A stretch of 7,147 nucleotides of DNA. Source: a virus. The notes beneath the pieces were generated by a model, which was given only the letters and a program-made list of their open reading frames with translations, had not been told where the DNA came from and ran no database searches. Position 1 is the stretch's first letter. The number at the start of each line of letters is the position of its first letter. Shown here one piece after another: positions 4,515-5,167 of the stretch. Made by a program: the position numbers and the translations under genes. The stretch is from UHGV virus genome UHGV-1395224. The stretch is one strand, 5' to 3'.

Positions 4515-4546
4515 GGCGACCCTTTTGCGGTCGCCTTTGTTTTGTC
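4515..4546 (+). terminator. Rho-independent terminator, plus-strand orientation, downstream of the RHH gene
   Basis: GGCGACC (4515-4521) pairs with GGTCGCC (4529-4535) around a 7-nt loop, followed by TTTGTTTTGT. Confidence 0.6.
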
Positions 4547-5123
4547 ACTGAATGCGGTTACCAAAGTAAAACTCAGGCTGATATACACGTATCAGCCTTT
4601 TTTCTTCTTCCTCCAGCTCACGCTTTTTGCGCTTACATGCCTGTAGCTCCCTCCCCTTCTCGCTGGCACTTATTTGATATTGCTCTTTACGGCGGGAAAA
4701 ATCCTGTAATGCACCCCATGGGATACCATAAGCCCCCGTTTTTCTGATACCCGGTATCACATTTCTGAATACCCAGTTACTGAAACGATGAGCAAATGTG
4801 CCAGGCGTCGTTGCTTTGCGGCTGCGGGCTATTAGTTTGTAGAAACCTGACTCAGAGATAATTCTCATATTCTGATTTCCTCCTGGGGTGTAAGTTAAAT
4901 TTACTCCCTTTTCATCATCATCAAGCATCTGCAACGCCGTACGCGAATTGGTTAGTTCCAGCGCAGCACAAACATCTTTTGCAACAAACCACGGATCGCC
5001 GTTCAGATACACCACACGAACGTTCACACTATCAAAGCGCAGAACGACGAGATCACGAATATCGCAGAATTTTTTCACTGGACGAGCGTACCCCTTGCCC
5101 GTCACGGCAATATTTTTATTCAT
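4545..5123 (-). CDS. Bro-N domain protein (antirepressor-like), 192 aa
   Basis: N-terminal segment LRFDSVNVRVVYLNGDPWFVAKDVCAALELTNSRTALQMLDDDEKG...GGNQNMRIISESGFYKLIARS matches the Bro-N signature as I recall it. C-terminal region is charged and low-complexity. The start lies only about 18 nt beyond the alpA terminator. Confidence 0.75.
   Translation of the reverse strand: MNKNIAVTGKGYARPVKKFCDIRDLVVLRFDSVNVRVVYLNGDPWFVAKDVCAALELTNSRTALQMLDDDEKGVNLTYTPGGNQNMRIISESGFYKLIARSRKATTPGTFAHRFSNWVFRNVIPGIRKTGAYGIPWGALQDFSRRKEQYQISASEKGRELQACKRKKRELEEEEKRLIRVYQPEFYFGNRIQ
4576..4603 (+). terminator. Second tandem plus-strand terminator, lying inside the 3' codons of the minus-strand Bro-N ORF
   Basis: GGCTGATA (4576-4583) pairs with TATCAGCC (4590-4597) around a 6-nt loop, followed by TTTTTT (4598-4603). 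Confidence 0.6.
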
Positions 5124-5140
5124 CGCGTTTTTACCTTATA

Positions 5141-5167
5141 GACAAAAAACCCCTCGTGATGAGGGGT
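5141..5167 (-). terminator. Rho-independent terminator downstream of alpA (minus-strand orientation)
   Basis: On the minus strand ACCCCTC pairs with GAGGGGT around a 5-nt loop and is followed by a T-run (plus-strand A-run 5142-5149). Confidence 0.6.

Follow-up and report, generated by a model that had tools for sequence, protein, structure and literature searches.

Behind the alpA gene of the viral genome UHGV-1395224, of which one stretch of 7,147 nucleotides was analysed (referred to here as the window), lies a minus-strand gene for a Bro-N domain protein, separated from alpA by a terminator. Its position raises the question of whether the gene is interchangeable cargo, an antirepressor, or a fixed part of the element that carries it, and of how it would be transcribed at all. 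The reading that we favour, at a probability of roughly one half, is that of a fixed Bro gene of a helper-embedded PICI (HE-PICI), made by read-through past the terminator, with a product that would act in trans on the interplay of helper and satellite.

The window covers the left-hand portion of an HE-PICI of the portal-site group B:Phage_portal_2:241, which was published by Tommasini, Mageeney & Williams (2023, NAR Genom Bioinform 5:lqad036; PMC10111431); the same work defines a "Bro zone" past int-alpA and estimates that HE-PICIs are present in ~5% of E. coli genomes. The int gene (5439-6680, minus strand; Pfam Arm-DNA-bind_3 and Phage_integrase) encodes a tyrosine integrase from the clade whose targets are late genes of prophages, with 99.8% identity to the integrase from portal-gene-inserted islands. 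The alpA gene (5180-5437, minus strand) encodes an 85-aa PICI activator or excisionase-type helix-turn-helix protein, matching PF05930 at E=7.5e-14 and PDB 8c3t, "AlpA family phage regulatory protein", at E=1.4e-7. The island boundary in the helper portal gene is set by the attL crossover core AAGGCGAT (6881-6888, minus-strand reading), which is the identity block of B_Phage_portal_2_241 (PMC10111431, SuppFiles 1 and 3). Past this boundary, a fragment of the lambda-family portal gene of the helper prophage was found at 6889-7134 (minus strand; Phage_portal_2, profile positions 157-242), in the same orientation as int, alpA and Bro. At two related loci (L001 and L003) the island splits the portal gene into two pseudogene halves, and the island inside the split gene carries int, alpA, primase, SSB, capsid and TerS genes. 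Gene order in the window is int, alpA, Bro, RHH, Icd-like and primase, like the zone order of published HE-PICIs (int, alpA, Bro zone, replication zone and late zone), and peptides of the Bro protein are present in SuppFile2 of PMC10111431, namely WFVAKDVCAAL in segment b9 and KRELEEEEKRL / GAYGIPWGAL in segment b12. By island structure, att core, position and segments the gene at 4545-5123 belongs to the HE-PICI Bro zone; it shares island type, the core and segments b9/b12 with published Bro-zone genes and shows no essential difference from them. A Bro gene in a satellite of a lambdoid-prophage portal is an ordinary feature that had been catalogued before.

The gene itself (4545-5123, minus strand) encodes 192 aa, and the Bro-N ORF called in a preliminary description of this DNA is real. 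Its product scores 72.2 bits with the Pfam Bro-N profile (PF02498; E=5.4e-20; gathering cut-off 25.6 bits) over residues 34-124 and profile positions 1-96 of 96, and it also matches PHROG 2593, "anti-repressor" (E=8.7e-85). The Bro-N domain occupies ~aa 22-128 and is followed by a C-terminal helical hairpin at ~aa 136-187. Structure prediction of the C-terminal half, suggested earlier, was carried out with AF2; the model is moderate overall (mean pLDDT 65.7); pLDDT is 76-82 in the Bro-N core, and the C-terminus forms two long helices, a hairpin that probably serves oligomerisation. Foldseek searches of BFVD returned Bro-N and Ant-like viral proteins (E down to 2.4e-11), and searches of the PDB returned, weakly, the N-domain of CpGV Orf22 and the DNA-binding domains of Mbp1 and Dachshund/Ski (E=6e-3 to 0.1). 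The HMM score and the predicted KilA-N/APSES-type DNA-binding fold class together place the product among Bro-N proteins. By sequence, no solved structure was found for it, the only matches being to TonB, by chance. The C-terminal part is private to the family: it matched no Pfam family, and its 68 aa matched 9 representatives only among 1.84 billion proteins. Across Enterobacterales the family comprises 2704 clusters at E<=1e-20, with members of ~195 aa that always lie in the early operon, and the dN/dS of the gene (0.10-0.21) points to strong purifying selection. Its central segment, aa 46-95, has been swapped through recombination; at the 11 loci sampled, neither insertion site, alpA type nor the family of the adjacent RHH protein co-varied with the central allele.

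The protein would regulate the helper-satellite interplay in trans, which is the weakest step of the proposal. Sequence-specific DNA binding is rated slightly more likely than sequestration of a repressor. A possible working model, by analogy, is CapR, which the Vibrio cholerae satellite PLE encodes (Netter et al. 2021, NAR 49:4386): a member of the "Bro network" that binds DNA and regulates helper genes. CapR has a domesticated homing-endonuclease domain, whereas no nuclease-type domain was detected by Pfam in the window protein, and as far as tested CapR is not a homologue of Bro.

The alternative that survives best is a helper-directed antirepressor in the style of P4 epsilon or P22 Ant, which would bind and inactivate the CI-type repressor of its helper, or that of prophages resident alongside, and thereby induce the helper or lock its lytic growth, letting the satellite spread. 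It is possible, with the odds against it. The top PHROG matches are all named anti-repressor or Ant, the protein is labelled "antirepressor" in the sources, it shares 55-60% identity with Ant-annotated phage proteins over its N-terminal 110 aa, and the gene is conserved where islands rely on a resident prophage; P4 epsilon, which is annotated in L062, is a precedent for helper derepression encoded by a satellite. These names were, however, transferred on Bro-N homology only. The Bro-N "Ant" proteins of temperate phages (phiV10, Kapi1, TL-2011b, phiKO2 gp27 and Aggregatibacter S1249 Ant) have the fold class in common with the window protein and a Bro-N domain that is 54-60% identical over ~110 residues, and the similarity is restricted to that domain; they carry other C-terminal domains, whereas the window protein ends in a 60-aa helical module confined to the satellite family. 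A recognised antirepressor domain (ANT, AntA, P22_AR_N/C or Phage_pRha) was sought and not found, Pfam giving Bro-N only, and from sequence comparison "antirepressor" appears to apply to Bro at the level of the family name only. The antirepressor association raised in the preliminary description has family and PHROG names behind it and no recognised antirepressor domain. If Bro needs helper late transcription, moreover, the helper is already derepressed, and one Bro allele is found in unrelated helpers, with insertions in a lambda-like portal, a gpA-type terL and a P27-type terL.

The comparison with P4 can be taken further. Its left operon (vis/orf88 - eta/kil/cI - epsilon - alpha) is like the window in having an alpA-type gene, then regulators, then a primase, with 34% identity between the AlpA proteins and 40% between the primases, and its epsilon protein derepresses the helper; the window island sits inside its helper, P4 does not. 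Bro was considered as a homologue of P4 eta, kil, epsilon or another P4 product, and no sequence similarity was found. An immunity-type RNA of the P1 immI or P4 kind near Bro was considered as well: an Rfam scan of the window at E<=1 gave no C4, IsrK or CI-type/seqA match, and two spurious miRNA matches, in the iteron region, were all that it returned.

How constant the gene is was assessed by survey. The int-alpA module was found in 61 E. coli genomes and is followed contiguously by Bro in 60 of them, and a full-length Bro gene is present in 183 E. coli genomes. The order alpA, terminator, Bro is kept in every one of the 11 E. coli islands that were sampled; all 11 are helper-embedded, their integrases differ, they span at least four insertion sites and three replicase types, and each island has the orientation of the helper late genes. 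The Bro copy is disrupted in two of the 11, by a frameshift in L003 and by an IS in L061. On this evidence the gene is a fixed island component and not swappable cargo, and in E. coli helper-embedded islands few non-replicative genes are as well conserved. Its conservation there could stem from clade ancestry and not from selection on the embedded lifestyle. The near-fixation is absent from the 2023 HE-PICI description and is added here.

A fixed gene may nonetheless be dispensable. EcCICFT073, the prototype Gram-negative PICI, can be induced, replicates and is transferred, with AlpA by itself setting off excision and replication (Fillol-Salom et al. 2018, ISME J 12:2114; PMC6092414). Like the window island it has int, alpA, a plus-strand YlcI/YnfO gene, Icd-like, DUF4222, primase, SSB and capsid genes. 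Unlike the window island it is integrated in the chromosome, and all that is left of Bro in the slot is a 105-nt remnant within a chimeric unannotated ORF, yet the element is fully mobilisable, so that Bro is dispensable for the basic cycle. Since excision, replication and packaging work in this relative lacking the gene, Bro would modulate the satellite cycle and not be required for it. The decay of Bro in EcCICFT073 is a further addition to the 2023 paper.

The sequence between alpA and Bro bears on transcription. An intrinsic terminator (5144-5167, minus strand) consists of a 7-bp GC-rich stem with a 5-nt loop, ACCCCTC-ATCAC-GAGGGGT, at 5167-5149 and a run of six T at 5149-5144. From the last T to the Bro ATG (5123) there are 20 nt, close to the ~18 given previously, and a Shine-Dalgarno AAGG (5134-5137, minus strand; by sequence reading) is placed 10 nt ahead of the ATG, with the motif (A/G)(A/G)GGTA present at 11/11 loci. 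A hairpin with five or six T stands 19-21 nt 5' of the Bro ATG in all 11 E. coli helper-embedded islands. The stems form two groups, CCCCTC/GAGGGG or CCCCGC/GCGGGG, related by one compensatory change, T-A to G-C, a single event parting two lineages; this change was judged by eye, MAFFT having left the 5' arms, with their unequal loop lengths, out of structural register. In islands with differing alpA genes, shared homology starts within the 3' arm of the terminator. Terminator-like sites number 12 in the region 3900-5600, against 2.1 +/- 1.3 in shuffled sequence. A scan of the minus strand over 4255-5955 for sigma-70-like promoters, sensitive to near-consensus sites only, gave none at the scan threshold, in agreement with the earlier statement that Bro has no promoter of its own. 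Reliance of Bro on read-through can fairly be inferred from the adjoining alpA terminator together with this lack of a detectable promoter. Presence of the terminator in 11/11 islands is consistent with read-through expression, either helper late or AlpA-driven, and its conservation upstream of Bro is an addition to the published HE-PICI description.

We propose that Bro is the final gene of a leftward int-alpA-bro unit that would lack a promoter in front of Bro. The terminator 20 nt upstream would hold the gene off under basal int/alpA transcription, and the protein would be made only on transcriptional read-through. The likeliest source would be Q-modified, terminator-resistant late transcription of the helper, arriving through the interrupted, co-oriented portal gene, a route suggested by geometry and orientation alone; that helper late transcription runs into HE-PICIs was proposed in PMC10111431. 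Strong AlpA-activated transcription may add to the read-through. A narrower form, in which Bro is switchable solely by Q-modified late transcription, with helper antitermination as the satellite's sensor and Bro as the effector, is doubtful. Were it true, Bro might hold the helper to its lytic course, readjust the helper's late genes or packaging, or shut down the RHH switch of the island through convergent read-through; satellite and helper would then be joined in a cis-wired regulatory circuit of a kind that has not been described so far. The window AlpA was also considered as a processive antiterminator and rejected, as its one PDB match is 8c3t and no chain of P. aeruginosa AlpA was matched. 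The latter has a 21Q-like 8-helix fold of >140 aa and is unrelated to the window protein; the common name is a coincidence.

It is improbable, in our estimation, that no gate exists and that the terminator simply ends the int-alpA operon, with Bro transcribed from a non-consensus or activator-dependent promoter overlapping the hairpin. Such a promoter would be consistent with the limited sensitivity of the scan, TATAAG at 5140-5135 is -10-like, and AlpA is an activator. Against this, TATAAG is replaced by TATGTG in the other stem group, a -35 match is absent, and the leader would be of only ~5 nt, so that the conserved Shine-Dalgarno would be lost from the mRNA. The proposed gate also has a limit of its own: where PICIs of other genera are integrated at tRNA genes, the Bro homologue sits after another ORF, without a terminator, so the gate is not family-wide and could simply mark the end of an int-alpA operon.

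Convergent with Bro lies a plus-strand gene (4248-4421) for a 57-aa ribbon-helix-helix (RHH) regulator, matching PHROG 228 (Arc-like repressor) at E=3e-7, with sub-threshold matches to Pfam Arc (E=0.0057) and NCBIfam YlcI_YnfO_N (E=0.001). The operator/promoter region at 4194-4254 contains two perfect 14-bp palindromes, ATGGTAATTACCAT, at 4206-4219 and 4236-4249, which overlap a minus-strand promoter at 4226-4254, TTGACA-17-TACTAT, facing the operon that runs from the Icd-like gene (NF033153, E=1.2e-17) to primase. The RHH transcript is ended by the primary plus-strand terminator (4515-4545; GGCGACC-N7-GGTCGCC, then TTTGTTTTGT), which adjoins the Bro stop codon and whose stems recur, around other loops, in related islands as well as at Yersinia and Raoultella loci. 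Its hairpin (4515-4535), just beyond the Bro ORF, is separate from a second one inside the 3' end of Bro, where the preliminary description had placed a plus-strand hairpin encoding the last ~20 codons. That hairpin exists, with the span corrected to 4575-4604: AGGCTGATA-N6-TATCAGCCT at 4575-4598, followed by plus-strand TTTTTT at 4599-4604, is terminator-like, covers Bro codons 176-183 and begins 17 codons ahead of the stop. The T-run is the complement of Bro Glu/Lys codons. From one E. coli allele to another the hairpin is near-identical in nucleotides and shows no compensatory change, and homologues from other genera lack it, so its conservation is uninformative on function; it is probably a back-up terminator of the convergent RHH transcript.

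This neighbourhood invites a different antirepressor model, which we consider unlikely, in which Bro inactivates the RHH repressor at the palindromic operators and so turns on the replication operon. The RHH gene is convergent to Bro in every case, the operators overlap a good promoter of that operon, and the arrangement resembles the Arc/Mnt/Ant genes of P22 immI. The RHH neighbours across related islands, however, are of two families with 10-97% mutual identity and vary independently of the central Bro allele; 98%-identical Bro copies adjoin either an Arc-like 57-aa or a YlcI-type 101-aa protein, and EcCICFT073 has a YlcI-type gene with its Bro remnant, yet AlpA alone induces its replication. 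The truly variable slot is the plus-strand cassette, a small RHH gene with or without a second ORF, and a search for cargo in HE-PICIs is better aimed there than at Bro.

That Bro is variable accessory or anti-phage cargo in a hotspot behind the regulator, as had been proposed at the outset, is very improbable, and the survey goes most of the way to refuting it. In its favour, the zone has been described as "dynamic" for the HE-PICI/PICI family as a whole, its Bro-network segments and genes being shuffled (PMC10111431), the centre of Bro is exchanged by recombination, and some islands have lost or disrupted the gene. Against it, Bro is kept in nearly all same-integrase islands and in every sampled island despite differing core modules, its size, early-operon position and apparent purifying selection are those of a conserved family, it has no PADLOC match at E<=0.01, and the comparison of this slot across related islands, which had been suggested as a check, found conservation of Bro beside variation in the adjacent cassette. 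The RHH and Icd-like proteins were likewise without a PADLOC match. The sole PADLOC match was a weak one, to PDC-S62, by a SWIM protein of one related island.

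The Bro gene was called as a minus-strand ORF of 192 aa at 4545-5123, with residues 34-124 matching Pfam Bro-N (PF02498) at E=5.4e-20 (72.2 bits; gathering cut-off 25.6) and the protein matching PHROG 2593 'anti-repressor' at E=8.7e-85; on the ORF call and these two matches, the Bro-N gene of the preliminary description is real and lies where it was placed. alpA (5180-5437, PF05930) is directly upstream on the same strand, preceded by a tyrosine integrase gene (int; minus strand, 5439-6680). The alpA start codon is 1 nt past the integrase stop codon (5437-5441), so alpA is left without an intergenic promoter region here, unlike in EcCICFT073, the experimentally characterised prototype from E. 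coli CFT073, where int and alpA are ~365 nt apart.

At the right end of the window, a lambda-family portal gene fragment (6889-7134) matches profile positions 157-242 of Pfam Phage_portal_2. In the closest complete genome, an island of ~10.8 kb splits the portal gene into two pseudogene halves and carries int, alpA, the Bro-N gene, a small plus-strand gene, an Icd-like gene, DUF4222, and genes for a D5_N/DUF5906 primase, SSB, major capsid protein, decoration protein, an HTH protein and TerS. Helper-embedded PICIs (HE-PICIs) were published as a class by Tommasini, Mageeney and Williams in 2023 (PMC10111431), with four zones, Integration (int, alpA), Bro, Replication and Late, of which the Bro zone was termed 'dynamic', with domain-swapping Bro-network proteins. 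The att identity block AAGGCGAT of site group B:Phage_portal_2:241 (PMC10111431) is present on the minus strand at 6881-6888, where the published attL sequence matches the window, and peptides of the Bro core and C-terminus are present in the alignment file of that paper as segments b9 and b12. Bro thus belongs to a feature already described, the HE-PICI Bro zone, and we put the joint probability of this identity and of Bro not being cargo at about 95%. No paper after 2023 using the term HE-PICI was found. Three copies of ATTTGCAATACACA lie between the integrase start and attL (6697-6752); they could be integrase sites of the arm type, or else the 'doubled DNA motif' reported as HE-PICI-unique (Tommasini et al., PMC10111431).

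The suggestion that Bro is cargo in a variable slot did not survive comparison with related islands, since Bro was kept almost throughout. Among 5,426 complete E. coli genomes, with int-alpA counted at ≥80% coverage, the window's int-alpA module was found in 61 and contiguous int-alpA-Bro in 60; the listed partial int-alpA matches were few and truncated. Full-length Bro was present in 183 E. coli genomes, adding ~120 with a different int/alpA, in which nucleotide homology begins ~30 nt 5' of the Bro ATG, in the 3' arm of a terminator. Eleven Bro contexts were sampled across identity classes, and all 11 islands sit inside prophage late genes (lambda-type portal, gpA-type large terminase and P27-type large terminase genes, and the head-tail region). 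Between them these islands have at least four types of integrase and three of replicase (D5_N/DUF5906 primase, DUF927, RepA helicase), and the order alpA, terminator, Bro is kept in every one, with two of the Bro copies disrupted (a frameshift in locus L003, an IS in L061). Across Enterobacterales, full-length relatives of 179-203 aa were found at 47-62% identity (2704 clusters at E≤1e-20). Those outside E. coli are in PICI-like islands, with a tRNA gene just upstream of the integrase in 7/11 scanned loci, and each time in an early operon with an alpA-like gene upstream and a primase downstream. At greater depth, Klebsiella and Salmonella HE-PICIs carry other combinations of Bro segments in the Bro zone, which is thus shuffled 'within a theme' rather than being a cargo slot that is either filled or empty.

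Pairwise dN/dS among E. coli Bro alleles was 0.10-0.21. The alleles are mosaics, with dS saturated at 1.7-2.7 in the middle of the gene (aa 46-95, in part up to 130) against 0-0.3 in the flanks, which indicates that the Bro-N core has been exchanged by recombination; the C-terminus is almost invariant. EcCICFT073 has the same backbone as the window island, with only a 105-nt remnant in the Bro slot, inside a chimeric unannotated ORF (L063, the CFT073 locus, 7768-8295). This ORF retains ~50 residues of the Bro-N core (ALQMFDDKKGVNLTYTPDGNQNMSIISESGFYKLI); the C-terminal module is missing, as are the N-terminal strands and the invariant ARSRKA...FAHRFSNW motif. In ~115 further genomes this fragment, for the most part unannotated, is all that matches Bro; the copy examined was that of CFT073. 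EcCICFT073 is induced by helper phage, replicates and is transferred at 10^3-10^6 per ml, and AlpA expression alone leads to its excision and replication (PMC6092414). Since EcCICFT073 cycles with the remnant only, the basic cycle does not require an intact Bro.

A terminator-like element follows alpA on the minus strand (stem 5167-5149, ACCCCTC/ATCAC/GAGGGGT, with six T's to 5144), and the 20 nt between the T-run and the Bro ATG at 5123 contain the Shine-Dalgarno sequence AAGG (5137-5134). A promoter scan found no sigma-70-like site on the minus strand over 4255-5955. Bro therefore abuts the alpA terminator without a detectable promoter of its own, as previously described with a spacing of ~18 nt. 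A plus-strand hairpin had also been noted inside the Bro 3' end, and is present (4575-4598, then TTTTTT at 4599-4604) over codons 176-183; it is, however, the second terminator met by a plus-strand transcript, the first being another hairpin (4515-4535) with its T-run immediately next to the Bro stop codon. Terminator-like sites around Bro are enriched (12, against 2.1 ± 1.3 in shuffles). In 11/11 E. coli islands, alpA and Bro are 50-59 nt apart, and a GC-rich hairpin with T5-6 in this spacer ends 19-21 nt 5' of the Bro ATG. The stem occurs in two versions, CCCCTC/GAGGGG among portal-group islands and CCCCGC/GCGGGG among the rest, which differ by a compensatory T-A to G-C change; the loops differ, and the T-run and Shine-Dalgarno region are conserved. 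Covariation support for the terminator is moderate, because it comes from one event. Islands of other genera have Bro directly after another ORF, with no terminator.

In every locus the island is oriented as the helper late operon, and no minus-strand terminator was found between attL and alpA, so helper late transcription would enter int and alpA. In lambdoid phages, late transcription is Q-modified and terminator-resistant. The hairpin after alpA would stop basal int/alpA transcripts, and Q-modified polymerase, or strong AlpA-activated transcription, would read through it into Bro. Continuation of helper late transcription into the island has been proposed (Tommasini et al. 2023, PMC10111431). 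Orientation, hairpin and the empty promoter scan make the earlier idea that Bro depends on read-through plausible, and we hold the odds of such a gate upstream of Bro to be even. AlpA as an antiterminator at the hairpin was dropped, the P. aeruginosa AlpA being an unrelated 21Q-like protein.

An AlphaFold2 model of Bro (88-sequence alignment) was of moderate quality (mean pLDDT 65.7), with aa 1-22 disordered, a Bro-N core at aa 22-128 (pLDDT 76-82) and, in the C-terminal half, long helices at 136-155 and 160-181 forming a hairpin. Foldseek matched the model to viral Bro-N and Ant-like proteins (E down to 2.4e-11) and, weakly, to PDB entries (E=6e-3 to 0.1) for the CpGV Orf22 N-domain, the Mbp1 APSES domain and Dachshund/Ski DNA-binding domains; no solved structure related by sequence was found. 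Bro-N and KilA-N were reportedly recognised as DNA-binding folds by Iyer, Koonin and Aravind in 2002, and the matches of the model agree with that established view. 'Antirepressor' is only a family label. Similarity to phage 'Ant' proteins ends at about residue 133, and no Pfam family matches the C-terminal 68 aa. Searched against 1.84 billion representatives, these 68 aa matched nine proteins, the strongest being Bro-family copies or fragments; the module is family-private, plausibly for oligomerisation. PADLOC gave no match for Bro.

No co-variation of the Bro allele was seen with the adjacent ribbon-helix-helix (RHH) protein, the alpA type or the insertion site, and its absence in the case of the RHH protein argues against a specific partnership of Bro with the island's own repressor. 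If Bro expression needs helper late transcription, derepressing the same helper would come too late; Bro could possibly lock lytic commitment, or act on prophages other than this helper or in cells just infected. P4 epsilon, which is not homologous to Bro, is a precedent for satellite-driven helper derepression, and no paper testing an antirepressor in a Gram-negative PICI was found. Bro would then be a trans-acting regulator of helper-satellite interplay, made late and serving as an accessory function rather than core machinery; as its mode of action, sequence-specific binding to DNA is rated slightly above the sequestering of a repressor, and our confidence in this molecular role is low. The helper prophages of two terL-embedded islands (L002, L059) carry their own 'phage antirepressor N-terminal domain' gene between lysis and terminase genes (13775-14344), which is unrelated to island Bro (no similarity by tblastn at E≤1e-4).

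The variable part of these islands is a plus-strand cassette flanked by Bro and the Icd-like gene (4130-4540 in the window; same place in L001-L004 and L059-L066, the related loci), which is a likelier cargo place than the Bro slot. Its first gene encodes a small RHH-type protein, Arc-like in the window or of YlcI/YnfO type, and these proteins are mutually 10-97% identical; some islands have a second ORF of 57-158 aa, of unannotated function, after it. The exception is L060, where a SWIM zinc-finger protein with a weak PADLOC PDC-S62 match is the sole annotated cassette gene. Relative to the published class, the additions are modest: the conserved terminator upstream of Bro, near-fixation of Bro in E. 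coli helper-embedded islands, its decay in the chromosomally integrated prototype, and this cassette as the real variable slot.

Two perfect 14-bp palindromes, ATGGTAATTACCAT, lie 30 bp apart at 4206-4219 and 4236-4249, with degenerate copies, and overlap both a minus-strand sigma-70 promoter (10/12; TTGACA 4254-4249, TACTAT 4231-4226), which faces the Icd-like-to-primase operon, and the start of the 57-aa RHH gene on the plus strand. The segment 4194-4254 resembles an operator/repressor switch for the replication operon. A plus-strand terminator, CGCCCCG...CGGGGCG (TTGTTTTTTG, 4160-4183), is antisense in the Icd-like gene leader and a minus-strand terminator-like hairpin (4083-4063) is inside the Icd-like ORF; together these recall attenuation in the P1 immI and P4 immunity regions, and Rfam C4 and IsrK had no match in the window. 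Just 3' of the primase gene, 1030-1260 is dense in direct and inverted repeats (CCTCTACC/GGTAGAGG), which produced two spurious Rfam miRNA matches; these repeats are probably the island replication origin.
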